Assembly: GCA_020248985.1 (NCBI GenBank)
Contig: JADCGL010000020.1
Coordinates: forward strand, 132,227 to 196,226
Direction of reading: 5' to 3'
DNA length: 64,000 nucleotides
Source of the DNA: Telmatospirillum sp.
GTDB taxonomy: Bacteria > Pseudomonadota > Alphaproteobacteria > CACIAM-22H2
Shown here piece by piece: positions 542 to 60,139 of the stretch; the first letter of the stretch is position 1; each line of letters starts with the position of its first letter. The notes beneath the pieces are model-generated. The model was not told the origin of the DNA and searched no databases. It saw only the letters and a list, made by a program, of their open reading frames with translations. The position numbers were made by a program, and so were the translations under genes.

Positions 542-707
542 GACGCGATCTCCGAATTGCCAAATGTCTGAAAACGAGCGCGGGTTATACAGACCCCCTG
601 CCTTCGCGTCAATCGAGGCATTTTCCGTTGTTTTTCAGTCCATTGTTTGCCCGATCGGGCCTCGTGCATGTAACGTCGCCTCTCCGCCGACCGAATTGGA
701 CCAAAGC

Positions 708-1418: not shown

Positions 1419-2836
1419 ACGAAATCGCCGCCGACATTTGCGTGATCGGGGCGGGCTCGGGCGGCCTGTCGGTGGCCGCCGGCGCCGCCCAGCTCGGCCT
1501 CAAAGTCGTGCTCGTCGAGGCGCACAAGATGGGCGGCGACTGCCTCAATTACGGCTGCGTGCCCTCCAAGGCGCTGATCGCGGCGGCGAGTGCCGTCAAG
1601 GCCGCGCGCGAAGCGGCCCGTTTCGGCCTGCAGACGGCGGGCGGCGTCGACTATGCCGCCGTGCGCAACCATGTGCGCGCGACGATCGCTTCCATTGCGC
1701 CGATGGATTCGGTCGAGCGCTTCGAGGGGCTTGGGGTCAAGGTCGTGGCGGCGCGCGCGAAGTTCGTCGGCCCGAAATTGGTCGAAGCGGGCGACATGCG
1801 CATTGCCGCGCGCAAATTCGTGGTCGCAACGGGCAGCCGGGCGGCCGTGCCGCCGATCCCGGGGCTGGCCGAGGTGCCGTTTCTCACCAACGAAACCGTT
1901 TTCGAACTTGATCGGCGGCCCGACCATCTGGTCGTGATCGGGGCGGGGCCCATCGGCTGCGAGCTTGCGCAGGCGCATGCGCGCCTCGGCACCAAGGTGA
2001 CGCTGATCGAAGCCGCAAGCATGCTGCCCAAGGACGATGAAGAGGCGGTCGCGGTCGTGCGCCAAAGCCTGATTGCCGACGGTGTTGCCTTGCGCGAGCA
2101 GGCGAAGGTCAAGCGCATCGAGCGCCACGCGGTGGGCACCGTCGTGGTGCTCGACGACGGCAAGGGTGGGGAGGCGGCACTCGCGTGTTCGCATCTGCTG
2201 ATCGCGACGGGCCGCAAAGCCAATATCGAAGATCTCGGGCTCGAAGCCGCCGGCATTGCCAGCGACGGCCGCGCGATCAAGGTCGACGATCGTTTGCGCA
2301 CCTCGAACCGCGACGTGCTGGCGCTTGGCGACGTCGCGGGCGGGCTGCAATTCACGCATGTCGCGGGCTGGCATGCCGGCCTGGCGATCCGCAATCTGTG
2401 TTTCCGCATCCCCGCGCGTGCCGACACGACCGCGATCCCGTGGGTGACGTACACGGCCCCCGAGCTTGCGCAAGTGGGCGTGAGCGAGGCGGCGGCCAAA
2501 GCGACGAACCGCGACATCGAAACCGCGCGCTGGCCGTTCCACGACAACGACCGCGCGACCGCGACCGGCGAAACGGCCGGCTTCGTGAAGCTCGTGGCCG
2601 AGCGCGGCCGCGTGATCGGGGCGACGATCGTGGGTGCGCATGCTGGCGATCTTGTGGCCCCCTGGGTCGTGGCGGTCGGCCAACGGCTCAAGGTCGCGAC
2701 GATGGCGGGCGCGGTGATGCCTTATCCGACCCTGTCGGAAGCGGGCAAGCGCGCAGCCGGGGCCTATTTCAGCCCGCGTTTGTTTTCGCCGCGCACGCGC
2801 AAGCTCGTGCGCTTCCTGTTCGACCTGCCGTTCTGA
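1415..2836 (+). CDS. FAD-dependent pyridine nucleotide-disulfide oxidoreductase (dihydrolipoamide dehydrogenase-like, class I)
   Basis: Carries the N-terminal FAD fold GAGSGG and the redox-active disulfide motif GGDCLNYGCVPSK (C-x4-C). There is no C-terminal Cys pair, so it is not MerA. It is coupled to the DedA gene upstream. Confidence 0.85.
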   Translation: MNEIAADICVIGAGSGGLSVAAGAAQLGLKVVLVEAHKMGGDCLNYGCVPSKALIAAASAVKAAREAARFGLQTAGGVDYAAVRNHVRATIASIAPMDSVERFEGLGVKVVAARAKFVGPKLVEAGDMRIAARKFVVATGSRAAVPPIPGLAEVPFLTNETVFELDRRPDHLVVIGAGPIGCELAQAHARLGTKVTLIEAASMLPKDDEEAVAVVRQSLIADGVALREQAKVKRIERHAVGTVVVLDDGKGGEAALACSHLLIATGRKANIEDLGLEAAGIASDGRAIKVDDRLRTSNRDVLALGDVAGGLQFTHVAGWHAGLAIRNLCFRIPARADTTAIPWVTYTAPELAQVGVSEAAAKATNRDIETARWPFHDNDRATATGETAGFVKLVAERGRVIGATIVGAHAGDLVAPWVVAVGQRLKVATMAGAVMPYPTLSEAGKRAAGAYFSPRLFSPRTRKLVRFLFDLPF

Positions 2837-2850
2837 TCCGGGCCGATGCG

Positions 2851-3669
2851 ATGGTTCGATTTCTGCTGGCGGCGGTTCTGATGCTGGGACTGATCCAGAC
2901 CGCTGCGGGCGCACCCAAGGCCGAAGCTTGGGATTTTTGGCGCGCGCACGATGCGGCCTCGACGCAAACGATCGACCATGCGCCTTGGTCGCAGCTGCTC
3001 GCGACGTATCGCAGCGAGGGTCCAGACGGTATCGCGCGTTTTGCCTATGGAAGCGTGACGGCCGCCGACCGCGCTTCGTTGCAGGCCTATCTCGCGGCGC
3101 TGCAAGCGGTCGCCCCGCGCACGCTCGCGCAGCCTCAGCAGAAGGCCTATTGGATCAATCTCTACAATGCCGCGACCGTCGAAACGGTGCTGTCCCGCTA
3201 TCCCGTCGCCTCGATCCGCGACATCCGCACCTCGCCCGGCCTGTTCGCGGTCGGGCCGTGGGGCGCAAAAATCCTGCGCGTCGAAAACCAGGCGCTGTCG
3301 CTCGACGATATCGAGCACCGCATTCTGCGCCCGCTGTGGCAAGACCCGCGCATCCACTACGCGCTCAATTGCGCGGCCCTCGGCTGCCCGAACCTTGGCG
3401 CCGAACCGTTCGACGCCGACCGCCTCGACACGCAGCTCGACGAAGCCGCCCGCCGCTTCGTGGCAAGTCCACGCGGGGTGCGCGTGGGCCCGCGCGGTCT
3501 CGTGCTGTCGTCGATCTACGATTGGTTCAAGGAGGATTTCGGCGCCGACGCGGCGGGCTTGCGGGCACACCTGCTCGCTTTCGCAACAGGCGACACGCGC
3601 GCCGCCCTCGAACGCGGCGCGCCCATCGCGTCCTACGACTACGACTGGGCGCTCAACGCGGCCCCGTAA
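2851..3669 (+). CDS. DUF547 domain protein with signal peptide
   Basis: Internal ATG of ORF 2185..3669, MVRFLLAAVLMLGLIQTAAGAP. Contains YNAATVE...DPRIHYALNCAALGCPNL, which matches the DUF547 core. Confidence 0.7.
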   Translation: MVRFLLAAVLMLGLIQTAAGAPKAEAWDFWRAHDAASTQTIDHAPWSQLLATYRSEGPDGIARFAYGSVTAADRASLQAYLAALQAVAPRTLAQPQQKAYWINLYNAATVETVLSRYPVASIRDIRTSPGLFAVGPWGAKILRVENQALSLDDIEHRILRPLWQDPRIHYALNCAALGCPNLGAEPFDADRLDTQLDEAARRFVASPRGVRVGPRGLVLSSIYDWFKEDFGADAAGLRAHLLAFATGDTRAALERGAPIASYDYDWALNAAP

Positions 3670-3828
3670 GCAAGTCGGGGCGGGGACTTCGCGCCGTGCC
3701 GAACCTTCAAGGACCGCGCCAGACTTCAGGCTTAGGTGTATTCCGGGGCTGCCGCGTGGATCGTTGGGCGCCTAACTCTGCAACGATGCGGGCGTCGTTG
3801 CGACGGCCGCCAACGCGCGGAGAGCGAT

Positions 3829-4011
3829 GTGGGCCTGATCCTTTTGATCGTCGTATTGGTGCTGCTGCTCGGCGGCGGCGGGGGCTACTACGCGCATGGC
3901 CGCTACGGCAATGCCGGAGCCGGCGGCGTGCTCGGCACCGTGCTCGTGGTGCTGGTCGTGGTGTGGTTCTTCGGCGGCTTTGCCGGCATGCATCCGCCGC
4001 CGCCGCTGTGA
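3829..4011 (+). CDS. DUF3309-like small membrane protein (two TM helices around a GYY/GRYG turn)
   Basis: GGAGAG sits 6-7 nt before GTG 3829. Product LILLIVVLVLLLGGGGGYYAHGRYGNAGAGGVLGTVLVVLVVVWFFGG. An upstream in-frame ATG at 3736 would add a GC-poor extension. Confidence 0.5.
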   Translation: MGLILLIVVLVLLLGGGGGYYAHGRYGNAGAGGVLGTVLVVLVVVWFFGGFAGMHPPPPL

Positions 4012-4018
4012 TCCAAGC

Positions 4019-5224
4019 TCAGTCGAGCGCGATCAGCGCCGCTTTGAGATAGGCGCTTTCCGGCAAAAACGGGTGCAGCGGATGGTCGGCACCCGCACCC
4101 GCCACGCGCAAGATGCGCGCTTGGCGCCCGGTTTCGGCGATGCCGCGTGCGGTCTCTTCGAGGAAATTCGCGGTCTCGACATTGTGCGAGCACGAGGCCG
4201 CGAACAGAAACCCGTTGGGGGCGACGAGGGCTGCCGCGAGGCGTGCGGCTTTGCGATAGCCCTTGAGCGCCATCGGCACGTCCTTGCGCGATTTGGCGAA
4301 GGCCGGCGGATCGCACACCACAACGTCGAACCGCTCGCCCGCGGCATCGAGATTGGCGGCGTGGTCGAAAATCTCGCCCTTGTCGAAACGGCATTTGGCG
4401 GCAACGCCGTTGGCCTCGGCCGCTTGTGCGGCAAGGTCGAGCGCGGCTTGCGCGCGGTCGGCAAACACGACCTGCACGGCCCCGGCAAGGGCGGCCTGCA
4501 CGCCGAAGCCGCCGCCGTAGCAATAGAGATCGAGCACGCGGGCACCGGCCGAAACTTTTGCGACGGCCGCCCGATTGTCGCGCTGGTCGTAGAACCAGCC
4601 GGTCTTTTGGCCGCCTGCCACGTCGGCAAAAAACGTGGCGCCGTTTTCCACGAGGCGCACCGGCCCCGCAACGGCGCCCTGCAGCGTTTCGCTTGCCGTA
4701 TCGAGCCCTTCGAGGCTGCGCGCATGGCTTTCGTCGCGCAGCACGATGGCGGCCGGGGCGAGTACCGCCTCGATCGCCTTGTGCAGTTCCGGCCACAGCC
4801 GGTCGATGCCGGCCGCATTGCGCTGGACGACCAGCGTGTCGCCGAAGCGGTCGATCACGAGGCCCGGGAAACCGTCGGCCTCGGCATGGATCAGCCGGTA
4901 GAAGCCGCCCGGATAGAGCCGTTCGCGCAAGGCAAGGGCGGCACGCAGCTTCGCCGCGCACCATGCCGCATCGACCGCCAGGCGCGGATTGCGCTCGAGC
5001 ATGCGCAGCGCGATCAGCGTGTGCGGATTGAAAAACGCCGTGCCCAGATTTTCGCCATGGCTCGTCATCACGCGCACCAGCGTGCCGCGCGCCAGCGCCT
5101 TGGCGCTGTTGTCCATCTGGATCTCGTTCGAATAGGCCCACGGATGGCCCATGCGCAGGCGCTGGTGGCGCTGCGGCTGCAGACGGATTTCCGGCAGCGT
5201 GCCGGTCGGCGACGTTTGGGTCAT
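4019..5224 (-). CDS. class I SAM-dependent rRNA (cytosine-C5) methyltransferase, RlmI/RlmK-like, with N-terminal PUA-like domain
   Basis: 401 aa. Has the SAM-binding LDLYCYGGGFG motif and DVVVCDPPAF, with RlmI-like overall architecture. Confidence 0.8.
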   Translation of the reverse strand: MTQTSPTGTLPEIRLQPQRHQRLRMGHPWAYSNEIQMDNSAKALARGTLVRVMTSHGENLGTAFFNPHTLIALRMLERNPRLAVDAAWCAAKLRAALALRERLYPGGFYRLIHAEADGFPGLVIDRFGDTLVVQRNAAGIDRLWPELHKAIEAVLAPAAIVLRDESHARSLEGLDTASETLQGAVAGPVRLVENGATFFADVAGGQKTGWFYDQRDNRAAVAKVSAGARVLDLYCYGGGFGVQAALAGAVQVVFADRAQAALDLAAQAAEANGVAAKCRFDKGEIFDHAANLDAAGERFDVVVCDPPAFAKSRKDVPMALKGYRKAARLAAALVAPNGFLFAASCSHNVETANFLEETARGIAETGRQARILRVAGAGADHPLHPFLPESAYLKAALIALD

Positions 5225-5272
5225 GGCGGACTTTCGGGGATGAGATGGAAAAGAGTTTCGAACGCGCCGGCG

Positions 5273-7245: not shown

Positions 7246-7950
7246 CTATTGGCGGACTTGGGCGATCTGGTCGAAGCTGCGCCGCACATAGACGATCTGG
7301 GCGCCGCGCGCTTCGAAGCGCAGGCCGACCCAGCTGTCGTCGGCGGCGTAGCTCAGATCGGCTTTGAGATCGCCCGTGACGCGGTAGGTCGAAACGCGCT
7401 GCGGGATCCCGTCGGCGGTCATGCTCGTTTCGCCGAGATTTTCGTTGGCGACCGTCGCAAGCTTGCCGCTCTGGGTATCCAGAAGCGCGCTGCGGTTCAG
7501 CTTGTCGCGATTCCAGTAGCTGCTGGGGGCGGTGTCGGCAGGGGCCAAGTAGCTGCCGCCGCTGCCTGAGACGGCCAAGCCCGACTCCCCGGCCGTGGCC
7601 AGCACGCGGGTGCGCGTGCCGTTGTCGTCGGTCGAGGCTTCGAGCGAGACGAGGCGCTCGCCCGACCACACTTCGGTGGCGCGATGCGTGTAGCGATAGA
7701 CGGTGACGAAAGCGAGTTTCACGGCCATGTCGATGGCGACTTCGACTTCGCGGCGGTTGCCTGCCTCGCGGATCGTGACGCGGTGCGTGCCGATGCTCGT
7801 GCCGTCGCGCATGACGTCGAACGTCAAGGTCTGCGTCGTGGCCGGAGCTTCTTCGCGCGGGCCGAAATTGGCGAGGGCCGGCGTTGCGGTGCCGAGCCCC
7901 AGACCAAGCCCAAGGCTCAAAACGCTCGCAAGGAGGAAACGGCTGATCAT
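7246..7950 (-). CDS. hypothetical secreted protein (signal peptide MISRFLLASVLSLGLGLGLGTATPALA)
   Basis: 234-aa ORF with a clean signal peptide and high-GC third positions. No family is recognised. Confidence 0.6.
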   Translation of the reverse strand: MISRFLLASVLSLGLGLGLGTATPALANFGPREEAPATTQTLTFDVMRDGTSIGTHRVTIREAGNRREVEVAIDMAVKLAFVTVYRYTHRATEVWSGERLVSLEASTDDNGTRTRVLATAGESGLAVSGSGGSYLAPADTAPSSYWNRDKLNRSALLDTQSGKLATVANENLGETSMTADGIPQRVSTYRVTGDLKADLSYAADDSWVGLRFEARGAQIVYVRRSFDQIAQVRQ

Positions 7951-7990
7951 GATCGCACTTGCTCCGTGGCTGATCTGGATACCTCTTGTA

Positions 7991-8016
7991 CGTCAATTTG
8001 CGTCAATCGGTTCAAT
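7991..8016 (+). repeat. three direct repeats (CGTCAAT, CGTCAAT, TTCAAT) phased at 10 bp
   Basis: cgtcaatttgcgtcaatcggttcaatg lies in the divergent intergenic region between 7246..7950(-) and the Fnr-type regulator gene. The one-helical-turn spacing suggests a protein binding array. Confidence 0.35.
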
Positions 8017-8149
8017 GCCTTCTGCCGCAAAACCGCAAATGCCTGTTCTTCATGGTATATTTACGGGTGGGCGAGCGAAGCCCTTGCGCTTCTGTCATGC
8101 GCGTAGCACCATGCCGAAGGTATCGCTGAACGTCAGGGGGGGCGGCAGG

Positions 8150-8884
8150 ATGGGAATCGTCACAAGCGCAATGGGCGTTCCGGTGCCAATGGCGATCGAA
8201 TCGCATTGCGACGAGTGCGCAATCCGCGAAGCCAGCATCTGCGAAGTTCTCGATGCCGCCCAGCTCGCGCGCCTGCGCGGCATTTCGACCGTCGTGACCT
8301 ACGCCCCGAACGCACCTTTGTTCGAGGAAGGCTCTGAAGCCCAGCATGTCAGCAACGTCATCGAAGGGACGGTGACGCTCTACAAGCTGCTGCCCGACGG
8401 GCGACGCCAGATTCTGGGTTTTCTGTATCCCGGCGATTTCGTGGGCCTCGCGCTGGACCCGACCTATGGCTGCTCGGCCGAGGCGACGACGGTCGTGCGC
8501 ATGTGCCGCTTCCCGCGCGAGCGCCTCGAAAAAATGTTCAAGGATCTGCCGGCCCTCGAGCACCGCTTGCTCGAAATCGCCGGCAACGAGATCAAGGCCG
8601 CGCAGGAGCAGATGCTGCTGCTCGGGCGCAAAACCGCGCGCGAGCGGCTGGCTTCGTTCCTGCTCGTCTTGTCGCGCCGCGCCGCGGCGCGCGGCCGGCC
8701 GGCCTCGCCCGTCGATTTGCCGATGCGCCGCTCGGACATCGGCGACTATCTCGGGCTCACGATCGAAACCGTGAGCCGCACGTTCACGCAGTTCAAAAAG
8801 GCGGGGCTGATCGGCCTTCCGAATCAGAGCCAGGTCACGCTGCTGCAGCGCGAGATCTTGGAAACGATCGCCGAAGGCAATTGA
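8150..8884 (+). CDS. Crp/Fnr-family transcriptional regulator, FnrN/FnrL-type oxygen sensor
   Basis: N-terminal Cys cluster HCDECAIREASIC (C-x2-C-x7-C), a cNMP-binding fold, and a C-terminal HTH (RSDIGDYLGLTIETVSRTF). Start is ambiguous: ATG 8150 (MGIVTS) or ATG 8111. The tracked ORF from 7703 is an artefact extension. Confidence 0.8.
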   Translation: MGIVTSAMGVPVPMAIESHCDECAIREASICEVLDAAQLARLRGISTVVTYAPNAPLFEEGSEAQHVSNVIEGTVTLYKLLPDGRRQILGFLYPGDFVGLALDPTYGCSAEATTVVRMCRFPRERLEKMFKDLPALEHRLLEIAGNEIKAAQEQMLLLGRKTARERLASFLLVLSRRAAARGRPASPVDLPMRRSDIGDYLGLTIETVSRTFTQFKKAGLIGLPNQSQVTLLQREILETIAEGN

Positions 8885-13291: not shown

Positions 13292-13368
13292 GCGGCCGTA
13301 GCTCAACTGGATAGAGCATCAGACTACGAATCTGGAGGTTAGGGGTTCGAATCCCTTCGGCCGCGCCA
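13292..13368 (+). tRNA. tRNA-Arg (anticodon ACG)
   Basis: GCGGCCGTAGCTCAACTGGATAGAGCATCAGACTACGAATCTGGAGGTTAGGGGTTCGAATCCCTTCGGCCGCGCCA. The 7-bp acceptor stem pairs, the D arm is GCTC/GAGC, the anticodon loop is CTACGAA, the T-loop is TTCGAAT, and CCA is encoded. Confidence 0.9.
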
Positions 13369-13402: not shown

Positions 13403-13900
13403 TCACCGATGGCGGCGATGGCCGCCGAATCCGTAGCCGAAACCGAAGGACGGTCCGGGCGGGTAGGGGCGCCAGCCATAGGGCTCGTAGTAATAGGGCC
13501 GCGGGCGGTAATAGGGTTCGGGATAGACATAGACCACGCGCGGCTGCGGCTGCGCGGCGATCACGATCGGCGCTTCTTGCGGCCTTGCACGCTGTTCGAC
13601 CGGCTGCGGTTCCTGTTGGGCAAGTTTCCATGTGCCGTCCGGCTGGCGGCAGGCGGTGCCGTAGGCCTGCTGCTGCGTGCCGCCGATCGTCACGGTTTTG
13701 GTGAATTCGCGGCATACGGTGCCGCCGCTGGCGAAGGCCGGTTTGGGCACGATCGTTTCGACCGTGCCGCTGTCCGGGTTCTGCCATTGCGTGACCGTGC
13801 CCGAGCGCGTCGTCTCGAGGGCCGCCTGTCCGGGACCGTCGAGAATCTGCGCTGCCGCACAGGCCGGCAGCAGGCCGACGAGGCCGACGACGCGCAGCAT
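13403..13900 (-). CDS. secreted protein with Pro/Tyr-rich C-terminal repeats
   Basis: Signal peptide MLRVVGLVGLLPACAAAQ. A Cys pair flanks a Gly-rich segment (TVCREF...YGTACRQPDGTW). The C-terminus reads VVYVYPEPYYRPRPYYYEPYGWRPYPPGPSFGFGYGFGG. Confidence 0.6.
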   Translation of the reverse strand: MLRVVGLVGLLPACAAAQILDGPGQAALETTRSGTVTQWQNPDSGTVETIVPKPAFASGGTVCREFTKTVTIGGTQQQAYGTACRQPDGTWKLAQQEPQPVEQRARPQEAPIVIAAQPQPRVVYVYPEPYYRPRPYYYEPYGWRPYPPGPSFGFGYGFGGHRRHR

Positions 13901-13962
13901 TTGAGGCAAGGTGCGCAACGGTCCCTCCGCGAAAAAGCCCCGCACCGATGGGCGGGTACCGA

Positions 13963-14754
13963 TCAAACGCTTTGCAGGCCGATCTTGTTCCCGGCTTTTT
14001 GCGCCTCGGTGTGAGGCCGCCACGCGAGGGTGCGGCGTTCGATTTCGCGCACCGCCTCGTGGAAGGCCCAGCCGAGCAGCGACAGCAGCAGCACGATGCC
14101 GATCACGGAAGCCGTGTCGCTGCTTTCCTGTGCCGCCGACAGCAAATAGCCAAGGCCTTTGCTGGCCCCCATGAGCTCGCCGACGACGGCCGCGGTCACC
14201 GCCTGAGTGGTGGCGATGCGCAAGCCGCCGAGGATGGCCGGCAGCGCCACGCGCAGATCGATCAAAACGGCGCGCTGGAACGCCGTGAGAGCCAGGATCT
14301 GCGCCAAATCGCGGAAGCCGCGTGCGGCATGCCGCGCACCGGCATAGGCCCCCGCCATTGCCGGGAAGAACGCGACGATGGCGACCAGCAGCGCCTTCGG
14401 CCCCATGCCGAGGCCGAACCACAAAATCAGCAGGGGCGCGATCGCGATTTTGGGCGCGGTTTGGATCAGCAGCACCAAGGGCGCTGCCAAACGCTCGAGC
14501 AGCGGATGGCGCGCGAAGACGAGGCCCGCGGCAATGCCGACCGCGCCGCCGGTCGCAAAGCCGACGGCGATTTCGCCCAAGGTCGTCGCCGTATGGCCGG
14601 CAAGGTCGGCGTAGGTCGCGAGAAACACGAGGCGATTCAAAACCGCGTCGGGGGCGGGCAGCAGGAAGGCCGGCACGGCAAACAGCCGCACCAACCCCCA
14701 CCACACCGCAAGGAAGCCCGCAAACGCCAGCAGATTGCGGGCGACCTTGCGCAA
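13963..14754 (-). CDS. ABC transporter permease (NitT/TauT family), second permease
   Basis: Carries the EAA-like region LLIQTAPKIAIAPLLILWFGLGMGPKA. The start is assigned to TTG 14754, 1 nt after the substrate-binding-protein gene stop. No in-frame ATG/GTG lies nearby, so the start is uncertain. Confidence 0.7.
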   Translation of the reverse strand: MRKVARNLLAFAGFLAVWWGLVRLFAVPAFLLPAPDAVLNRLVFLATYADLAGHTATTLGEIAVGFATGGAVGIAAGLVFARHPLLERLAAPLVLLIQTAPKIAIAPLLILWFGLGMGPKALLVAIVAFFPAMAGAYAGARHAARGFRDLAQILALTAFQRAVLIDLRVALPAILGGLRIATTQAVTAAVVGELMGASKGLGYLLSAAQESSDTASVIGIVLLLSLLGWAFHEAVREIERRTLAWRPHTEAQKAGNKIGLQSV

Positions 14755-14756
14755 CG

Positions 14757-15752
14757 TCAGACGCCGATCGCGCGCGGCTGCACGACCATCTCGGCCGCCG
14801 GGAAGCCGCGCTCGATGGCTTTGTATTCGGCCAGGACGTCGATGTTCTTCTGCCAGGCCGCAAGGTCGGCGGCACCCAGGCCGTTGGCTTTGGTCGTCGG
14901 GCTTTGCCAGACCGACGCGATGAACGTGTCGCGGAAGGCGCGCTCGAGGATCGCTTCCTGGCCCTTCCAGGTCGGCGCGTGTTTGTCGATGGCGATCTGC
15001 AGCGCTTCGGCGACGTTGCCGGCGATGACCCACTCGAAGCTTTCGGTGATCGCGTCGTTGAAGCGGCGCACGGTTGCGGCGCTCGTGGCCAAGGTCCGGT
15101 CGCCGGTGACAACGACATTGCCGAACGAGGGCAGAAAATCGTTCGACAGGATCATGTGCGTGGGGAAACCGTCGGCCTCGAGATTGTATTTGCGCAGCTC
15201 CGAGAACACGATCGCGTCGACCTGGCCCGCCTGCAGCGACTGCACGATCGCGCCCGTGGCGACGATCTCGAGCTTCACGTCGTCGAGCGCGAGGCGCGCT
15301 TGTTTGAGGCCCACCTGCAGCTGCAGATAGTTGGGGCTGCCGAGAGCCGTGATCGCCACGCGCTTGCCCTTGAGATCGGCATAGCTGCGAATGCCGCTGG
15401 TGCTGCGCGTGAGCAAGGCGCCGATGCCGCGCTGGTAGGTCGTGTGCACGACCTTGACCGGCAGGCCGTTGGCGCGCGCCGCGATCACGGAATCGCCGTT
15501 CGGAAAGCCGAAGCCGACATTGCCGCTCGCGACATTGCGCAGAATGTCGGACGCCGCCGCATAGACGATCTGCACGTCGAGCCCGCGGCTGCGGAAGAAG
15601 CCTTTTTCGAGCCCGGCATAGATCGGCGCGTAGAACGGCACGGCCGCCCCGTCGATCTGCAGGCTCACGGCCTGCGGGCTTTGGGCGCGCAGCACGTTCG
15701 GTGCGGCGAGCGCGGCCGCACCGGCGGCCAAAAACAGGCGACGTTCGATCAT
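14757..15752 (-). CDS. ABC transporter substrate-binding protein, NMT1/THI5-like (NitT/TauT family)
   Basis: 331 aa with a signal peptide (MIERRLFLAAGAAALAAPNVLRAQS) and the periplasmic binding fold of the sulfonate/nitrate/HMP-binding family. Confidence 0.82.
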   Translation of the reverse strand: MIERRLFLAAGAAALAAPNVLRAQSPQAVSLQIDGAAVPFYAPIYAGLEKGFFRSRGLDVQIVYAAASDILRNVASGNVGFGFPNGDSVIAARANGLPVKVVHTTYQRGIGALLTRSTSGIRSYADLKGKRVAITALGSPNYLQLQVGLKQARLALDDVKLEIVATGAIVQSLQAGQVDAIVFSELRKYNLEADGFPTHMILSNDFLPSFGNVVVTGDRTLATSAATVRRFNDAITESFEWVIAGNVAEALQIAIDKHAPTWKGQEAILERAFRDTFIASVWQSPTTKANGLGAADLAAWQKNIDVLAEYKAIERGFPAAEMVVQPRAIGV

Positions 15753-15764
15753 GGTTGTTTCTCC

Positions 15765-16538
15765 TTATCGCAAAAAGGGTTCCAGCAAGGCAGCCGCCGC
15801 AACGCCCACGCGCACGACGGATGTTTGGGCGGGTTCGTAGTCTTCGAGCCAAGTGTCGGTCACGCGGTCGCCGTGCACGGCGAGGACGGCGCCCACCTGC
15901 AGGCCAAGGGCAGGCCCGACCGTAAACAGCGTTTCGGTTTCCATGTCGCAGCCGAGCGCTCCGGCGGCGACGAAGGCGGGGATCGGATCGGCGACGACCG
16001 GCCCGTCTTGCGCGATCGGGCGGCCTTGGCCGCGATAATAGCTGTCGGTCGTGGCGACGGTGCCGCGGCGGCAATCGAGCTTGAGATCGCGCGCGGCCGC
16101 TTCGAGTGCCGCCACGACGGCCGGTGTCGCGACTGCGGGGCCGCTGCGATAGAGGCCGCCCGCACCGGTGCCGCCGATCGCCGCATCGACGGCGAGCAGG
16201 CTGCCGAGCTTCAGGCCCGGGGCGATCGCACCCATGCCGCCGATGCGGATCACGGCGCGCGCACCGAGATTGGCGAGTTCGACGAGCGCGATCTCGGTCG
16301 AGGGGCCGCCGATGCCGCTCGAGCAGATCGTGACGGGCCCGCTCGGCGTCTCGACTGTGGCGACGCGGAATTCGCGGCGCTGGCCGAAATCGCGCCCGCC
16401 GCCATAGAGGGCGGCCGCAAGCGAAACGCGAGCGGGGTCGCCCGGCAGCAGCACGACGGGGGCGATGTCGCCGGGCCCGCACGGCAGATGCGGCGGCCGG
16501 CCGTTTTGCCACGGGAAGGCGGCGGTGCGCGCTTTCAT
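15765..16538 (-). CDS. nucleoside phosphorylase, PNP/UDP family 1 (DeoD/Udp-like)
   Basis: VVLLPGDPARV matches the VLMPGDPLRA phosphate-binding motif. VIRIGGMGAI matches IRVG-CGAI. TTDSYY and CDMETETLF match SSDLFY and EMEAAAL. The ATGA overlap at 16535-16538 couples it to the permease upstream. Confidence 0.78.
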   Translation of the reverse strand: MKARTAAFPWQNGRPPHLPCGPGDIAPVVLLPGDPARVSLAAALYGGGRDFGQRREFRVATVETPSGPVTICSSGIGGPSTEIALVELANLGARAVIRIGGMGAIAPGLKLGSLLAVDAAIGGTGAGGLYRSGPAVATPAVVAALEAAARDLKLDCRRGTVATTDSYYRGQGRPIAQDGPVVADPIPAFVAAGALGCDMETETLFTVGPALGLQVGAVLAVHGDRVTDTWLEDYEPAQTSVVRVGVAAAALLEPFLR

Positions 16539-17299
16539 GATGCTCCGCTCCAGCGGATCAAGCGCCGCTCGGCCGCGGCAAGGGCAAGATGCAGCGCCAA
16601 GCCCAGCATCACGGTGAGGGCGACGGCCGCGAACAAGAGCGGCGTGCGGTAGGTCGCACTGGCAAAGGTCATCAGATAGCCGAGGCCGAATTTGCCGGAC
16701 ATCCATTCGCCGAGGACAGCCCCGACGACCGCCTGCACGGCCGCGATGCGGAAGCCCACGAAGATATCCGGCAAGGCCGCCGGCAAGTCGATGCGCCAGA
16801 GTTTTTGCGCAGGGCTGAGATCGAGGATGCGCGCCAAATCGCGCAAGGCCGGATCGAGGCCGCGCAACCCGACCAAGGTCGCGACCAGAACCGGAAACGC
16901 GGTCAACGACACGATGAGTGCCACTTTGGACGCAGCCCCGAGCCCGAACCAAATCACAAACAGCGGCGCGAGAGCGATTTTCGGCGCGGTCTGAAGGATC
17001 AAGATCGGCCCTTCGAGCCAGCGTTCGAGCCGTACGGAGCGCGCAAGGGCGGCACCCGCGGCAAGCCCGAGTGCCGTGCCGAGGGCGAGCCCCGCCGCGA
17101 TGTTGCCGAGCGTGTGCGCCAGATGCAGCCAGAGCGCGCCGCTCGCCGCAAGGTTTGCGATCGCATCGCCGACGGCGGCAGGTGCAGGCAGCAAATAGGC
17201 CGGAACCTGGGCGGCCACGACGTAGACCTGCCACGCAACCAACACGGCACCGAGGCCGAGCGCATGGTCGACGAGCGGAGGCAGCGTCCTGGCGGTCAT
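16535..17299 (-). CDS. ABC transporter permease (NitT/TauT family)
   Basis: [19 protein letters not shown]... with the EAA-like ILQTAPKIALAPLFVIWFGLGAASK. An ATGA overlap couples it to the ATPase stop. Confidence 0.85.
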   Translation of the reverse strand: MTARTLPPLVDHALGLGAVLVAWQVYVVAAQVPAYLLPAPAAVGDAIANLAASGALWLHLAHTLGNIAAGLALGTALGLAAGAALARSVRLERWLEGPILILQTAPKIALAPLFVIWFGLGAASKVALIVSLTAFPVLVATLVGLRGLDPALRDLARILDLSPAQKLWRIDLPAALPDIFVGFRIAAVQAVVGAVLGEWMSGKFGLGYLMTFASATYRTPLLFAAVALTVMLGLALHLALAAAERRLIRWSGAS

Positions 17300-18081
17300 C
17301 GCAGATCCTTGCGGAATTGCGCCATCAGCGCGTGGAAGCGCGGATCGAGCTTGGTTGCCTCGCCGCGCGGCCGCGCAAGATCGACCGTGTGGATGGCTTT
17401 CACAATGCCGGGCCGCGGCGACATCACCGCAACGCGATCGGACAGATACGCCGCTTCTTCGACCGAGTGGGTTACGAACACCACGGTCTTGCGCGTCTCT
17501 TCCCAGATGCGCAGCAATTCGTCGTTGAGGCGGTCGCGGGTGAGCAGATCGAGCGCCCCGAAGGGTTCGTCCATCAGCAAGATCGGCGGATCGTAGGACA
17601 GAGCCCGCGCGATCGAGGCGCGCTGGCGCATGCCGCCTGACAATTGATGCGGCAGCGCATCGGCGAAGCCGGCAAGCCCGACAAGATCGAGCAGATGGTG
17701 CGCGCGCGCATCCGCTTCGGCGCGGTCGGTGCCGGCGGTGTCGAGCGGAAAGCGGATGTTGGCGAGTGTGCTGAGCCAGGGCAGCAGCACAGGGTCCTGG
17801 AATACGAAACCGATGCGCCGGCGGGCGCTCTCGCGGAATTCTTCGGCAAGTGCGATGCGCCCGCTGCTCGGCGCATCGAGGCCTGCAATAAGGCGCAGCA
17901 AGGTCGATTTGCCGCAGCCCGAGGGGCCCACGATCGACAGAAATTCGCCGCGCGCGACCGTGAGGCTGACGGGTGCCAAAGCGTCGATCGTTTCGCCCGA
18001 CGGCCCGGCAAAGCGCTTGGCGACCTGATCGATCGAAATCATCGGCGCGCGGGCGGCCAGTTGCGTCTCCATGGCCGCCAT
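17296..18081 (-). CDS. ABC transporter ATP-binding protein (NitT/TauT family)
   Basis: Walker [10 protein letters not shown], signature [15 protein letters not shown], Walker [16 protein letters not shown] 18081 is chosen as start because of the conserved upstream 17-mer. Other in-frame candidates are 18108, 18072 and 18042. Confidence 0.85.
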
Positions 18082-18087
18082 CTTTGC

Positions 18088-18104
18088 TTTGTTCCAAAAC
18101 AATA
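18088..18104 (-). repeat. 17-nt motif TATTGTTTTGGAACAAA (mRNA sense), copy A, 6 nt upstream of the ATPase ATG
   Basis: Identical to copy B at about 39424-39440 (plus strand TTTGTTCCAAAACAATA). It contains the inverted half-sites TTGTT/AACAA with a 4-nt spacer. Confidence 0.6.
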
Positions 18105-18251
18105 ACAAGAAGCGGGCGCCCCAATCCCACCGTCGGCCTCGTCGCCGGGGCGATCCCTTGCCAGATTCCTAAAATTTGTGGTATTTAAAAAACATTGGGC
18201 GAGAAACGCCTGGAATTCATGTTTCGCAACGATATGCGGAGGCCTTCGAGA

Positions 18252-18458
18252 ATGTCGGGTCTTGGAGCAGTGGGCAACGGAGTCGGGGCCGGTTCGTCCG
18301 GTACGGCCAAATTCGATCTCGCCTATCAGGTCGGCGCGTTTGTCGCCGCCTTCAACAATCAGCAATGGACGCCGCAGAGCTTCTTCGACGGTCCGCGCGT
18401 CAATGCGCCCGACCTCGTCGTGTTCGGCCAGGGCAAGACCTACGACTTCTTCGCCTGA
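18252..18458 (+). CDS. orphan small protein (68 aa), Gly-rich N-terminus
   Basis: GGAGG lies 9 nt before ATG 18252 and is preceded by an AT-rich tract (cctaaaatttgtggtatttaaaaaacatt). Product MSGLGAVGNGVGAGSSGTAKFDLAYQVGAFVAAFNNQQWTPQSFFDGPRVNAPDLVVFGQGKTYDFFA. No family is recognised. Confidence 0.5.
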   Translation: MSGLGAVGNGVGAGSSGTAKFDLAYQVGAFVAAFNNQQWTPQSFFDGPRVNAPDLVVFGQGKTYDFFA

Positions 18459-18581
18459 CGGCGAGGGGCGAAAAATTCCACAATGATGCCGCAATTGCGC
18501 GCGGAATAGCCGGCCGGTCTCGCGCTTTGTCTTGGCGACGACGGTATCGTGCCGTCGCCCGACAGAAAGCGGAGACATCCC

Positions 18582-18797
18582 ATGAAGAAGTTTGCGGCTC
18601 TTGCCATCGCCCTCGCCCTGGCCGTTCCGGCGGCCGCGTTCGCGCAGACGACCCCGACCGCGCAGCCGACGGCCAAGCCCGCCGTCGCTGCCCCGTCGGT
18701 CGCACAGGCCGCGCCGAAGGCGGGCGAAGCCAAGAAGACCGAAACGGGCACCCACACGGGTACGCCCGCGGCCAAGGAACAGCCCAAGAAGAACTAA
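18582..18797 (+). CDS. small secreted Ala/Pro/Thr/Lys-rich protein (71 aa)
   Basis: GGAGA lies 6 nt before ATG 18582. Signal peptide MKKFAALAIALALAVPAAAFAQ, followed by a low-complexity TPTAQPTAKPAVAAP...KEQPKKN tail. Confidence 0.6.
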   Translation: MKKFAALAIALALAVPAAAFAQTTPTAQPTAKPAVAAPSVAQAAPKAGEAKKTETGTHTGTPAAKEQPKKN

Positions 18798-18813
18798 GCT
18801 TCCGGCTGTTGTT

Positions 18814-18850
18814 CCCGCCGCGCTGCAGCCTTTGGTTTGCGCGCGGCGGG
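18814..18850 (+). terminator. GC-rich stem-loop after the small secreted gene (possible terminator, no U-tract)
   Basis: CCCGCCGCGC-15 nt-GCGCGGCGGG forms a perfect 10-bp stem. Confidence 0.3.
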
Positions 18851-18895
18851 GATAGCCCTACACCCCCTGCGGCCATTCGGTAAGTCGCTACCTCG

Positions 18896-18954
18896 ATTTG
18901 CGTGCGCTGCAAAAATTCGGGTTTGCTGCGCTTGCACATTTGCGCAGAACGCGC
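18896..18954 (+). promoter_or_regulatory. operator-like cluster of TTGC...GCAA palindromic repeats upstream of the RND operon
   Basis: aTTTGCGTGCGCTGCAAAaattcgggTTTGCTGCGCTTGCACATTTGCGCAGAAcgcgc. Repeated TTTGC(G/T) units and the CTGCGC/GCGCAG inverted repeat sit 70-130 nt upstream of the adaptor-subunit start. Confidence 0.35.
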
Positions 18955-19025
18955 CTAAGTGTTTCCCATGCGGCGACTGCTGAATGCGGCAGCGCCAACC
19001 AAAATCGGCATGGGGGCATTTGAGA

Positions 19026-20159
19026 ATGGCGCAGCGTCTTATCGGTGCGGTCGCGATCGCAGCTTCGTTGGTGTGGGCGCAGGCTGCGTTGGCGCAGGGC
19101 GGGCCGCCGCAAGCCCCGCCGGTCACGGTTGCCAAGCCGGTCGTCAAAGAAATCGTCGAGCAGGACGACTACACAGGCCGCTTCGAGGCGGCCGATTCGG
19201 TCGAACTGCGCGCGCGCGTTTCGGGATATCTCGAAGCGGTTCGCTTCCGCGACGGCCAGATCGTGCGCGAGGGCGATCTCTTGTTCGTGATCGACAAGCG
19301 CCTCTACCAGGCAACGCTTGCGCGCACGACCGCCGCCGTTAACGCCGCCCAGACGCGTCTCGATTTCGCGCGCCTCGATTTCGAGCGCTTCGAGCGTTTG
19401 GCGCGCAGCGGCACGGCACCCGAGCGCCAGCTCGAGCAGACGCGCCAGACCTTCCAGCAGGCGCAGGCCGACATCGCGGCCCTGCGTGCAGACCAGGAAA
19501 CGGCGCGCCTCAATCTGGGCTTCACCGAGATCCGCAGCCCGCTCAACGGCCGCATCGGCCGCAAGCTCGTCTCGGAAGGCAATCTCGTGACGGCCGACCA
19601 GACGCTGCTTTCGACGATCGTGTCGATCGATCCGATCTATCTGAACTTCGACATCGACGAGCGCTCCTACATCGCCTACACGCGCCGCGTGCAGGCCGGC
19701 GAGCAGCAATCGGGCCGGGCCGGGGCGGGCTTCGACGTGCGCGCAGGGCTGCTCGACGAGCGCAACATGCCGCGCGTCGGACGCCTCGAGTTCCTCGACA
19801 ACCGCATCGATCCGGCCAGCGGCACGATGCGCGCGCGCGCCACGTTCCCCAACAACGACGGCTTGCTCACGCCGGGCCTGTTCGGCCGCGTGCAGGTGCC
19901 GGGCTCCAACCCCTACAAAGCCGTGCTGATCCCCGAAGAGGCGATCGGCGCGGACCAGGACCGGCGCTTCGTATGGGTGGTGGCCGACGACGGGTCGGTC
20001 GCGATCCGCCTGATCCGTCCCGGTCCGCGCATCGACGGCTATCGCATCGTTCGCACCGGCCTCGACGGCAGCGAGCGCATCGTCGTGGTCGGTCTGCAGC
20101 GCGTGCGCCCCGGCGGGCGCGTGACGGCGCAGACGATCGAACTTCCACAATCGCGCTAA
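19026..20159 (+). CDS. efflux RND transporter periplasmic adaptor subunit (membrane fusion protein)
   Basis: Start ATG 19026 (MAQRLIGAVAIAASLVWAQAALA). Shows the HlyD/AcrA-like lipoyl and alpha-hairpin pattern with RLDFARLDFERFERL. Confidence 0.85.
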   Translation: MAQRLIGAVAIAASLVWAQAALAQGGPPQAPPVTVAKPVVKEIVEQDDYTGRFEAADSVELRARVSGYLEAVRFRDGQIVREGDLLFVIDKRLYQATLARTTAAVNAAQTRLDFARLDFERFERLARSGTAPERQLEQTRQTFQQAQADIAALRADQETARLNLGFTEIRSPLNGRIGRKLVSEGNLVTADQTLLSTIVSIDPIYLNFDIDERSYIAYTRRVQAGEQQSGRAGAGFDVRAGLLDERNMPRVGRLEFLDNRIDPASGTMRARATFPNNDGLLTPGLFGRVQVPGSNPYKAVLIPEEAIGADQDRRFVWVVADDGSVAIRLIRPGPRIDGYRIVRTGLDGSERIVVVGLQRVRPGGRVTAQTIELPQSR

Positions 20160-20210
20160 GCGCCCGAGCCCGCTCGGTCGTAACGGCAGCACCCAAAGGG
20201 AATCCGCGCC

Positions 20211-23200
20211 ATGCGCTTTACGCATTTCTTCGTCGACCATCCGATCTTCGCCTCGGTGCTGTCGATCGTGATGGTCATTCTGGGCGCAGTCGCGTTCACG
20301 GCGCTGCCGGTGACCGAATATCCGGAAATCGCCCCGCCCACCATCGTGGTGCGCGCGGCCTATCCGGGTGCGGACGCCCAGACCGTGGCCGCCACGGTCG
20401 CAACCCCGCTCGAGCAGGAAATCAACGGCGTGGAAGACATGATCTACATGTCGTCCTACGCCACCGCCGACGGCTCGATGGCGCTCACGATCACCTTCAA
20501 GGCCGGCACCAATCTCGACCAGGCGAGCGTGCTCGTGCAGAACCGCGTGTCGATCGCCACGCCGCGTTTGCCCGAAGAAGTGCGCCGCCTCGGCATCACG
20601 ACGCAGAAAAGCTCGCCCAACCTCATGATGGTTGTGCACATGCTTTCGCCCGACGAAAGCTACGACCAGCTCTACATCTCGAACTACGCGCTGCTGCGCG
20701 TGCGCGACCAGTTGCTGCGCATCGAGGGCGTGGGCGACCTCATCGTGTTCGGCGCGCGCGAATACGCCGTGCGCATCTGGATGGACCCAGACAAGCTCGC
20801 AGGCTACGGCCTGTCGGCGGGCGACGTGGTGCGCGCGTTGCGCGAACAGAACGTGCAGGTCTCGGGCGGTTCGCTCGGCACGCCGCCGGCCGACGCCAAC
20901 ACGGCCTTCCAGATCGCGGTGACCACGCAAGGGCGTTTCGAAGATCTGCGCCAATTCCGCGACGTGATCGTGCGCAATTCGGGCGACGGCCGCCTCGTGC
21001 GCGTGGGCGACGTCGCCCGCCTCGAGCTCGGCGCCAAAGACTACGTGACGAATTCGTATCTGAACGGCAAACCCGCCGTGGCGCTCGCGATCTTCCAGCG
21101 CCCCGGCTCGAACGCGCTCGCCACCGCCAACGCGATCCGTGCGCGCATGATCGAACTGCAGCGCGATTTCCCGATCGGCGTCGAACACCAGGTCGTCTAC
21201 AACCCGACCGAATTCATCCAAGAATCGATTTCGGCCGTCTATGCCACGCTGATCGAAGCCATCGTGCTCGTGGCGCTTGTGGTGCTCGTGTTCCTGCAGA
21301 GCTGGCGGGCGGCCCTCATTCCCATTCTGGCGATCCCGGTGTCGCTGATCGGCACGTTCGTGGTGCTGCTCGAATTCGGTTTTTCGCTGAACGTGCTCAC
21401 GCTGTTCGGCATGGTGCTGGCGATCGGCATCGTCGTCGACGACGCGATCGTGGTCGTCGAAAACGTCGAGCGCAACATCGCCGAGGGCATGAGCCCGCGC
21501 GACGCCGCGCACGAAACCATGGACGAGGTGGGAACCGCCGTCATCGCGATTTCGATCGTGCTGTGCGCGGTCTTCATCCCGTCGGCGTTCGTGCCCGGGC
21601 TGCAGGGCCAGTTCTACCGCCAGTTCGCCGCGACGATCGCGGTCGCGACGGTGCTGTCGGCGTTCAATTCGCTGACGCTGTCGCCGGCCCTTGCGGCCAT
21701 TCTCCTCAAGCCGCACGATCCGCACCACGCGCCCAAGAACCCGATCGCCAAACTCGGCAGCGGCTTCGCCGCGATCTTCAATCGCGGCTTCGACAAGATG
21801 GGCCACGGCTACGCCACGCTTTCGGGCGTGCTCGTGCGGCGCAAGGCGCTGATGCTTTTGGTCTATGCGGGCCTCGGCGGGGCGACCGTGTGGATCGGCT
21901 CGGCGGTGCCCACGGGCTTCATCCCGCCGCTCGATCGCGGCTACGCGATCGTCGCGATCCAGCTGCCCGACGGCGCTTCGCTCGAACGCACCGATGCGGT
22001 CGTCAAACGCGCGATGGGCATTCTGCAGAACACGCCCGGCGTCAAAGACGCGGTCGCGTTCGCCGGCTTCTCGGGTGCGACGTTCACGAACGCGCCCAAC
22101 GCCGCCGTGATCTTCACCGGCTTCAAGCCGTTTTCCGAGCGCATCCCGGCGGGCCTCAGTTCGGATGCCATCGTCGGCCAAATTTTCGGCCGCATGCAGC
22201 AAATCCAAGAGGCGTTCATCATCGCCATCGCACCGCCCTCGGTGCCGGGCATCGGTTCCCTGGGCGGCGTCAAGCTGCAGCTGCAAGACCGCACTGGAAA
22301 CGACGTCGTGCGCGTGCTGGGGGCTGCGAACCAACTCATCGGCCAGTTGCGCCAGACGCCGGGGCTGGTCGGCGTGTTCACGTCCTTCTCGGCCAGCACG
22401 CCGCAGATCTATCTCGACATCGACCGCACCAAGGCGCAGATCCTGAACGTGCCGATCGGCAACATATTCGAGACGCTGCAGTTCAATCTGGGCACGGCCT
22501 ACGTCAACGACTTCAACGCGTTCGGCCGCGTCTACCAGGTGCGCGCCCAGGCCGACCGCGAGTTTCGCCTCACGCCCGACGATATTGCGCGCCTGCGCGT
22601 GCGCTCGGCGACGGGCGCTTTGGTGCCGCTCGGCACGCTCGTCGACATTCGCGACACGACCGGGGCCGATCTCGTGCAGCGCTACAACGCCTTCGTGTCG
22701 ATTCCGATCCAGGCGGCGGCGGGGCCCGGCCTCACCTCGAGCCAAGCCATTGCGCTGATCGAGAAGGTGGCGGCCGAAACGCTTCCGGCCGGCATCGGGC
22801 TCGAATGGACCGAACTTGCCTACCAGGAGAAGCTCACCGGCAACACGGCGACGTACATCTTCATTCTCGCGGTCGTGTTCGTGTTCCTGGCGCTTGCCGC
22901 CCAGTACGAAAGCTGGGGCATGCCGTTCTCGATCGTGCTGATCGTGCCGATGAGCGTGCTGTCGGCGTTGGCGGGGGTGATGATCCGCGGGCTCGACAAC
23001 AACATCCTCGTGCAGGTGGGCCTCATCGTGCTGGTGGGGTTGGCGGCCAAAAACGCGATTCTGATCGTCGAGTTCGCGCGCCAGATCGAAAACGAGGGCA
23101 AAGACGCCGTCGAAGCGGTGGTCGAGGCTTGCCGCCTGCGGCTGCGGCCCATTCTGATGACGGCGTTCGCCTTCATCTTGGGCGTCGTGCCGCTCGTCAC

Positions 23201-23369
23201 GGCAACCGGGCCAGGTGCCGAGATGCGCCAGTCGTTGGGCACGGCCGTGTTCGCCGGCATGCTCGGCGTCACGATCTTCGGCCTGTTCCTGACGCCGGTT
23301 TTCTACGTCGTCGTCCGCAGCCTGTCGCGGAAACGAAAGGCAATTGCGGCTGCTGCACCGCAAAAATGA
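20211..23369 (+). CDS. efflux RND transporter permease subunit (HAE1, AcrB/MexB-like)
   Basis: 1052 aa. Begins MRFTHFFVDHPIFASVLSIVMVILG and has 12-TM AcrB-like architecture. No outer-membrane factor gene is adjacent. Confidence 0.9.
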   Translation: MRFTHFFVDHPIFASVLSIVMVILGAVAFTALPVTEYPEIAPPTIVVRAAYPGADAQTVAATVATPLEQEINGVEDMIYMSSYATADGSMALTITFKAGTNLDQASVLVQNRVSIATPRLPEEVRRLGITTQKSSPNLMMVVHMLSPDESYDQLYISNYALLRVRDQLLRIEGVGDLIVFGAREYAVRIWMDPDKLAGYGLSAGDVVRALREQNVQVSGGSLGTPPADANTAFQIAVTTQGRFEDLRQFRDVIVRNSGDGRLVRVGDVARLELGAKDYVTNSYLNGKPAVALAIFQRPGSNALATANAIRARMIELQRDFPIGVEHQVVYNPTEFIQESISAVYATLIEAIVLVALVVLVFLQSWRAALIPILAIPVSLIGTFVVLLEFGFSLNVLTLFGMVLAIGIVVDDAIVVVENVERNIAEGMSPRDAAHETMDEVGTAVIAISIVLCAVFIPSAFVPGLQGQFYRQFAATIAVATVLSAFNSLTLSPALAAILLKPHDPHHAPKNPIAKLGSGFAAIFNRGFDKMGHGYATLSGVLVRRKALMLLVYAGLGGATVWIGSAVPTGFIPPLDRGYAIVAIQLPDGASLERTDAVVKRAMGILQNTPGVKDAVAFAGFSGATFTNAPNAAVIFTGFKPFSERIPAGLSSDAIVGQIFGRMQQIQEAFIIAIAPPSVPGIGSLGGVKLQLQDRTGNDVVRVLGAANQLIGQLRQTPGLVGVFTSFSASTPQIYLDIDRTKAQILNVPIGNIFETLQFNLGTAYVNDFNAFGRVYQVRAQADREFRLTPDDIARLRVRSATGALVPLGTLVDIRDTTGADLVQRYNAFVSIPIQAAAGPGLTSSQAIALIEKVAAETLPAGIGLEWTELAYQEKLTGNTATYIFILAVVFVFLALAAQYESWGMPFSIVLIVPMSVLSALAGVMIRGLDNNILVQVGLIVLVGLAAKNAILIVEFARQIENEGKDAVEAVVEACRLRLRPILMTAFAFILGVVPLVTATGPGAEMRQSLGTAVFAGMLGVTIFGLFLTPVFYVVVRSLSRKRKAIAAAAPQK

Positions 23370-60022: not shown

Positions 60023-60139
60023 GATTTATCCCCAGCTTTCGGACCCGCCAATTGCGGGTTTGTGCGATCCGCCTTGACCCGGCGGATACGCAAGCTATGG
60101 TGTTTCCCGCGTTGCGCGGACTGCCATATCCGCGAAACG

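Follow-up and report, generated by a model that had tools for sequence, protein, structure and literature searches.

Bacterial ATP-binding cassette (ABC) importers of the NitT/TauT type (SsuABC, TauABC, NrtABCD), like ThiXYZ, combine an ABC_tran ATPase and SsuC/TauC-like BPD_transp_1 permeases with an NMT1/SsuA-fold binding protein, and the Ssu, Tau and ThiX systems have one permease each. Nucleoside cleavage is typified by uridine phosphorylase (Udp, EC 2.4.2.3; E. coli, Salmonella and Vibrio), a member of nucleoside phosphorylase family I (NP-I). Reductive orotate degradation is known from Clostridium oroticum, a strict anaerobe that starts from free orotate and uses an orotate reductase/class-1B dihydroorotate dehydrogenase (DHOD-B), a dihydroorotase and a ureidosuccinase. 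Here, we describe an operon within a 64-kb stretch of Telmatospirillum sp. DNA (the window) that contains the complete set of NitT/TauT-type components but differs from the systems above in carrying the gene for a divergent Udp-like enzyme between its transporter genes, in encoding two paralogous permeases, and in having every component score below the curated cut-offs for the named systems. We consider it probable, with good confidence, that this module imports the nucleoside that its own enzyme cleaves. More tentatively, and with slightly less than even confidence, we propose that the operon is a self-contained module for the uptake and cleavage of a uracil-type ribonucleoside, most likely orotidine (6-carboxyuridine), which would be converted to orotate.

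The operon occupies 18081-13963 on the minus strand and consists of five contiguous genes encoding an ATPase, a permease, a PNP_UDP_1-family enzyme, an NMT1-family binding protein and a second permease, the order given in the original prediction made for this DNA. Its features, with protein lengths in amino acids (aa), are:

18081-17296, minus strand: ABC ATPase, 261 aa; Pfam ABC_tran, E=9.6e-35; NitT/TauT-like
17299-16535, minus strand: permease 1, 254 aa; BPD_transp_1, E=1.7e-23; SsuC/TauC-like, below cut-offs
16538-15765, minus strand: divergent Udp-like nucleoside phosphorylase, 257 aa; PNP_UDP_1, E=2.6e-26
15753-15764, minus strand: 12-nt spacer with a Shine-Dalgarno-like GGAG, preceding the binding-protein gene
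15752-14757, minus strand: periplasmic NMT1/THI5-family substrate-binding protein, 331 aa; NMT1, E=4.5e-35
14754-13963, minus strand: permease 2, TTG start, 263 aa; BPD_transp_1, E=7.1e-23
13939-13956, minus strand: terminator-like hairpin, CCCGC...GCGGG then GCTTTTT; consensus match only

The coupling between genes that had been predicted is also present: the ATG codons of permease 1 and of the phosphorylase each overlap the stop codon of the preceding gene (ATGA), the 12-nt spacer separates the phosphorylase gene from that of the binding protein, and a 2-nt gap separates the latter from permease 2. The bases upstream of the binding-protein ATG (15752) are TGCGATAAGGAGAAACAACC. The ATPase contains a Walker motif and the signature LSGGMRQR, and cross-matches between the two permease types show about 40% identity, marking permeases 1 and 2 as paralogues. 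Public gene calls on identical metagenome contigs list these five products at identical lengths. The hairpin at 13956-13939 begins 7 nt past the permease 2 stop codon and is likely the end of the operon.

The enzyme shares with Udp its fold, phosphate-binding arginines, ribose contacts and uracil-reading residues, yet by curated thresholds lies outside the characterized family. Sequence identity to the E. coli and Salmonella enzymes is about 35% (E=4e-30). The protein matches Pfam PF01048 (PNP_UDP_1) with 92.9 bits against a cut-off of 25.1, and contains in its translation all four motifs by which it was originally recognized (VVLLPGDPARV, IRIGGMGAI, TTDSYY and DMETETLF). Its AlphaFold2 model (mean predicted confidence, pLDDT, 94) aligns with Udp structures at a TM score of 0.85 and a root-mean-square deviation (rmsd) of ~2 Å, and the top 50 matches from a Foldseek comparison with the PDB are all uridine phosphorylases. 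The Udp equivalog model TIGR01718, however, is matched at only 148.3 bits, below its cut-off of 280.3, and NF008383 at 116 bits, below its cut-off of 262.

We aligned the window enzyme with 22 relatives from four phyla and read the active site in E. coli numbering. The phosphate residues R30, R48 and R91 and the ribose contacts H8, M197 and E198 are invariant in all 23 sequences. The Gln166/Arg168/Arg223 triad, which reads the O2-N3-O4 edge of uracil, is represented by Q171, R173 and R225 in the window enzyme; R168 and R223 are found in 23/23 sequences and Q166 in 21/23. Retention of this triad makes a purine cargo unlikely, so that where the original prediction allowed a modified pyrimidine or a purine nucleoside, the purine half loses ground and a uracil-type compound is favored. 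Around these conserved residues the pocket differs from that of Udp. Three substitutions, T94G, I220H and Q225T, are present in every member of the subfamily, and position 221 is Gly, Ala, Cys or Asn. None of the three occurs in six more distant alignable Udp-like sequences, which keep T94 and have an aliphatic residue (five sequences) or Gly (one) at position 220. In E. coli Udp, Thr94 is a phosphate contact, and Ile220 and Val221 form a hydrophobic wall of the base pocket. Two further conserved motifs, W-L-x-D-Y in the gate loop and an N-terminal FPW..GRPPHLP, also set the enzyme apart from Udp, as does the position of its gene inside a transporter operon. These features suggest a distinct Udp subfamily under strong selection that accommodates a uracil-like base in a remodelled pocket. 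Because the catalytic residues are invariant across the subfamily, the enzyme is not a decayed pseudoenzyme, an outcome that the original prediction had named as fatal to it.

Combining a scan of species-representative genomes with look-ups of individual homologues, we collected 32 distinct loci that encode a subfamily enzyme; these were read by tblastn and public gene calls, a filter on GC content at third codon positions (GC3) being unreliable at 73% GC. The order ATPase-permease-enzyme-binding protein-permease is present in 22 of the 32, so the gene order that had been proposed is conserved well beyond the window: the colinear loci come from several orders of Alphaproteobacteria, from Variovorax, from two Paenibacillus species and from Pilosibacter. 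In another five, all from Actinomycetota, the enzyme gene is divergent from an ATPase-permease-binding protein-permease set. The remaining five are those of Paratissierella, Saccharopolyspora and an acidobacterial metagenome-assembled genome (MAG), and two truncated contigs. The pairing of transporter and enzyme thus recurs in three bacterial phyla. The regulators that accompany the module are orthologous XRE proteins in Proteobacteria and IclR proteins in Gram-positives.

The exceptions bear on what the transporter carries. In Paratissierella (L016), the place of the NMT1-type transporter is taken by a nucleoside ABC importer of the Bmp/PnrA type, encoded immediately upstream of the enzyme, and in Saccharopolyspora (L083) and the acidobacterial MAG (L030), an aromatic-acid-type major facilitator superfamily (MFS) transporter lies by the enzyme gene. 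Three unrelated transporter types therefore adjoin one enzyme subfamily, a pattern that would follow if the transporter's role were to supply the enzyme with its substrate. The window proteins belong to the NMT1 and BPD_transp_1 families and not to Bmp and BPD_transp_2, so that by family they are not a Bmp/PnrA (carbohydrate uptake transporter 2, CUT2) system; the likeness is functional only, and the two unrelated importers probably do the same job. The phosphopentomutase gene deoB provides a second link. In 9 loci, drawn from two phyla, its product (494-549 bits, above cut-offs) is encoded beside the module, which fits ribose-1-phosphate as a product of the enzyme. Together with the Bmp swap in Paratissierella, this supports the central idea of the original prediction, that a nucleoside is imported and cleaved to base plus ribose-1-phosphate.

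Two of these loci have features of their own. In the acidobacterial MAG (Acidobacteriaceae; L030, 8001-8800), the enzyme gene is frameshifted after ~55 codons, through either an assembly error or pseudogene formation. In Pilosibacter fragilis (L020), a Bmp-type ABC set (an ATPase and two permeases) and an adenosine deaminase are encoded at 512-5259, just upstream of the IclR gene and the five-gene module, so that two nucleoside systems lie side by side.

Which base the enzyme releases is suggested by other neighbors in related genomes. A PyrD/PyrK pair accompanies the module in 16 of the 32 loci. These proteins score 331-381 bits against a class-1B DHOD equivalog cut-off of 269, match solved DHOD-B at 233 bits versus 91 for dihydropyrimidine dehydrogenase, and keep the NISCPN catalytic motif. 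Genes for amidases of the M20 hydantoinase/carbamoylase family are found in 14 loci, all of them among the 16 with PyrD/PyrK. In rhizobia and actinobacteria the usual DHOD is a quinone-dependent class-2 enzyme, so an additional, NADH-linked PyrD/PyrK of class 1B encoded beside a carbamoylase looks catabolic. Three loci (L017, L019 and L022) also have a complete amidohydrolase gene; in L011 the gene runs off the contig and is only partly present. The L017 protein scores 363 bits to solved dihydroorotases versus ~105-124 to dihydropyrimidinases, and all four contain the HxHxR[DE]PG and MPNT motifs, which bind the substrate carboxylate. In Ahrensia (L085), a 354-aa Amidohydro_1 gene adjoins the M20 gene. 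Carboxylate-type transporters also lie by PyrK: a tripartite ATP-independent periplasmic (TRAP) DctPQM system in Pseudooceanicola (L009) and Ahrensia, and an aromatic-acid MFS protein in Terrarubrum (L090) that is 57% identical to the MFS protein paired with the enzyme in Saccharopolyspora. The same Terrarubrum flagellatum locus has a type-2 pyrF (7309-8289; 194 bits versus a cut-off of 111) that runs codirectionally with the module and immediately precedes its ATPase gene; MFS-PyrK-PyrD-M20 lie on the other side. The conserved catabolic neighbors PyrD/PyrK, dihydroorotase and carbamoylase point to orotidine and orotate, a cargo that the original prediction did not include.

Not every gene in these neighborhoods was given weight. 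The pyrF genes of Variovorax (5 kb off) and Nonomuraea (7 kb off) count for little, as they may be housekeeping copies. Two small actinobacterial open reading frames (ORFs) that resembled phosphoribosyltransferases by eye have no Pfam or NCBIfam match, and we make no claim for them. They lie between the IclR and M20 genes in L011 (10820-11905) and L013 (10721-11709), and only the second of the two is matched in L022 (11123-11527). In Neorhizobium galegae (L081, 13756-16421), a second, distant NMT1-type ABC transporter is encoded between DeoB and M20-PyrD-PyrK. Its binding protein is ~28% identical to that of the module, and it may be a free-base importer.

These observations suggest a model for the module. 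We propose that the periplasmic NMT1-fold protein would bind the nucleoside and that a heterodimer of permeases 1 and 2, powered by the single ATPase, would import it. The co-translated Udp-like enzyme would then use phosphate to cleave the nucleoside to base plus ribose-1-phosphate; for orotidine, the products would be orotate and ribose-1-phosphate, and phosphopentomutase would recycle the latter. In the window's genome, orotate could enter UMP synthesis through PyrE/PyrF, and in other loci lacking catabolic genes the base could reach UMP through PyrE/PyrF if it is orotate or through Upp if it is uracil. In many relatives, class-1B PyrD/PyrK would instead reduce orotate with NADH to dihydroorotate, a dihydroorotase would open this to N-carbamoyl-L-aspartate, and the M20 carbamoylase would release aspartate, CO2 and NH3. 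If the base is orotate, the chemistry of this route closes: it is the C. oroticum route preceded by uptake of a nucleoside. The likeness to C. oroticum belongs to the wider family: enzyme types of its pathway (PyrD/PyrK, M20 and, in some cases, dihydroorotase) adjoin the module in related loci and not in the window, and those loci differ from C. oroticum in adding nucleoside uptake and cleavage and DeoB, and in belonging to aerobes from several phyla. The chemistry also has a precedent. A review (PMC3347554) describes an ordinary Erwinia uridine phosphorylase preparation that cleaves orotidine irreversibly at ~1% of its rate on uridine, and the reaction is therefore feasible on a Udp scaffold.

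A broader and more doubtful possibility is that the operon is the core of an orotidine/orotate utilization system, comprising the first NMT1-fold nucleoside importer and the first dedicated orotidine phosphorylase and feeding an aerobic reductive orotate pathway. In such a pathway an NADH-linked DHOD-B would run in reverse, followed by dihydroorotase and by the M20 enzyme acting as ureidosuccinase. In the literature we searched, no NMT1-type nucleoside importer, dedicated orotidine phosphorylase or gene cluster of this kind is described, in keeping with the original view that this is not a standard annotated system. The bacterial dihydropyrimidine dehydrogenases that are known are PreA/PreT-type or ferredoxin-dependent PydAc enzymes, and none is of the PyrD/PyrK type.

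In proposing orotidine, we infer from sequence that transporter and enzyme share a substrate, that cleavage is phosphorolytic and that the base released is orotate; the cargo is assigned indirectly because the accessory genes are known from the neighborhoods of other genomes, while the window has the five-gene core only. Several points weigh against this proposal. A tblastn search of the 64-kb window detected no PyrD/PyrK, M20, dihydroorotase or DeoB, and about half of the related loci are also without these catabolic genes within 8-10 kb. The orotate link is drawn from gene neighborhoods, and the two modules could lie side by side yet work independently. Plain uracil would be read by the same residues, the reading of T94G and I220H as a carboxylate pocket is conjecture, and with Thr94 lost the reaction might be a different one, for instance hydrolysis. 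The literature searched has little on where orotidine occurs in the environment. Finally, DHOD-like enzymes can act on dihydrouracil in fungi, according to PMC9585004.

This last point favors a serious rival, namely that the module handles plain uridine or another common pyrimidine nucleoside (thymidine or 5-methyluridine), and that the nearby PyrD/PyrK, amidohydrolase and M20 genes form either an undescribed reductive uracil variant or a separate orotate module. The best family and structure matches of the enzyme are to uridine phosphorylases, its uracil triad is kept, and the DeoB and adenosine deaminase neighbors fit general nucleoside use. We nonetheless consider this explanation less likely than orotidine. 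The enzyme falls far under the Udp equivalog cut-off (148 vs 280), and T94G and I220H alter phosphate-contact and base-pocket residues and are invariant in the subfamily. The amidohydrolases in these clusters are of the dihydroorotase and not the dihydropyrimidinase type. Several clusters have no amidohydrolase, and there a reversible housekeeping PyrC could serve dihydroorotate but not dihydrouracil. The TRAP and aromatic-acid MFS transporters favor a carboxylated base. We also saw no genes for beta-alanine handling in the loci examined; an aminotransferase and aldehyde dehydrogenase upstream in L086 were considered for beta-alanine catabolism, a sign that would have favored a uracil pathway, and dropped, the aldehyde dehydrogenase being of the succinate-semialdehyde type.

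The binding protein also bears on the ligand. It is 100% identical to a protein from a Telmatospirillum sp. MAG and has an RR-containing signal peptide (MIERRLFLAAG...), and its AlphaFold2 model (pLDDT 88) is disordered over residues 1-22. Across orthologues from Proteobacteria, Actinomycetota and Bacillota, 69 positions are invariant. Many of these are polar or aromatic, one Arg and one His are among them, and they fall in motifs such as QIDGAAVPxYAP, GFPNxD, HTTYQ, SxNYxQLQ and LPSFGN. This conservation suggests a specific polar ligand. Such an exceptionally conserved, polar-rich protein, coupled to an enzyme whose base pocket is remodelled around retained uracil edge-reading residues, would also suit a different modified uracil nucleoside, such as a uridine from tRNA turnover that bears a 5-substituent or a carboxyl group, or an antibiotic or analogue, with the orotate link then being indirect. 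We judge this distinctly improbable: no modification-removing enzymes are conserved nearby, and the only recurrent partners of the module are orotate-pathway paralogues and DeoB.

The fold of the binding protein is shared with proteins for other ligands. Its nearest solved structures are the thiamin-binding protein 4NMY and ThiY (3IX1), at 21-22% identity and ~4 Å rmsd; other matches are to Thi5, SsuA, TauA and the pyrroloquinoline quinone (PQQ)-binding PqqT, the whole set spanning 17-22% identity. The protein is thus a deep branch of the NMT1 fold. The fold and these nearest structures are what could favor a transporter that, like ThiXYZ, salvages a thiamine or cofactor precursor (a compound like the thiamine pyrimidines HMP and FAMP, or a riboside), as the original prediction had envisaged. 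That part of the prediction is not supported. Identity to 4NMY and ThiY is only 21-22%; an Rfam search of 17900-19100 at E<=1 returned no match, the thiamine pyrophosphate (TPP) riboswitch included; no thi genes are found among the annotated neighbors of any related locus; and the partners that are conserved are catabolic. We regard thiamine salvage as very improbable.

No named NCBIfam transporter model is reached by any subunit, and all scores are far below cut-offs (SsuA_fam 78 vs 163.5, SsuC 112 vs 347, TauB 209 vs 357). The ATPase matches SaoA, taurine and nitrate ATPases best, in each case below the cut-off. Unlike Ssu systems, the operon has no desulfonation genes, and searches beside it in the window and among annotated neighbors in related loci found no ssuD or tauD and no genes for nitrate assimilation. 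The alternative of an ordinary importer for sulfonates, taurine or nitrate, with a phosphorylase gene present by chance or encoding a non-catalytic pseudoenzyme, for which the best NCBIfam matches (SsuC, TauC, SaoA and nitrate-type) could be cited, is similarly hard to credit given how far these matches fall short, the absence of such genes, the invariant catalytic residues, and an insertion that is conserved in Proteobacteria and Bacillota and linked in Actinomycetota.

Beyond the operon, the window is chromosomal, judging by the cytochrome oxidase genes, the tRNA and the glycine riboswitch that it contains; the last two were the only matches in an Rfam scan of the whole window. A megablast of the operon against plasmids returned only short ATPase matches at 74-78% identity and is uninformative on the origin of the locus. 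A promoter scan did not find a sigma-70 consensus, though such a scan is uninformative at 67% GC. The glycine riboswitch aptamer (60139-60236, plus strand, 60.8 bits) lies ahead of an ORF that starts near 60341, and the tRNA-Arg(ACG) gene (13292-13368, plus strand) lies ~600 nt past the operon end on the opposite strand. Between the tRNA and the operon, at 13403-13900 on the minus strand, is a gene for a lipoprotein of 165 aa. This protein is of the 17-kDa-antigen type (PF16998 on L087, an identical contig) and has a Pro/Tyr/Gly-rich C-terminal tail; it starts 62 nt past permease 2, beyond the hairpin. On the other side, two small ORFs on the plus strand (18195-18458 and 18549-18797) are divergent from the operon and fill a 59%-GC intergenic stretch between it and a resistance-nodulation-division (RND) efflux pair at 18984-23369. 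One would encode ~68 aa, by the gene call on L087, and the other a small secreted Ala/Pro/Thr-rich protein.

The module described here is uncharacterized and widely conserved. Both of its parts come from superfamilies that are already known, the NP-I phosphorylases and the NitT/TauT-like importers, but by curated thresholds neither falls in a characterized family. If our proposal of orotidine uptake and cleavage is correct, the ligand range of the NMT1/SsuA binding-protein superfamily would grow to include nucleosides; proteins of this superfamily are routinely labelled as transporters for sulfonate, nitrate or hydroxymethylpyrimidine (HMP). The enzyme would define a new subfamily of uridine phosphorylases that is recognizable by its sequence signature and whose predicted substrate can be tested, and all of these predictions are accessible to experiment with commercially available substrates and carriers that can be cultured. 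In the wider family, the module and its neighbors would constitute a multi-phylum catabolic island for orotidine and orotate. Such an island would explain the extra NADH-linked PyrD/PyrK in bacteria that have a quinone-dependent DHOD, and would provide candidate genes for N-carbamoyl-L-aspartate amidohydrolase.

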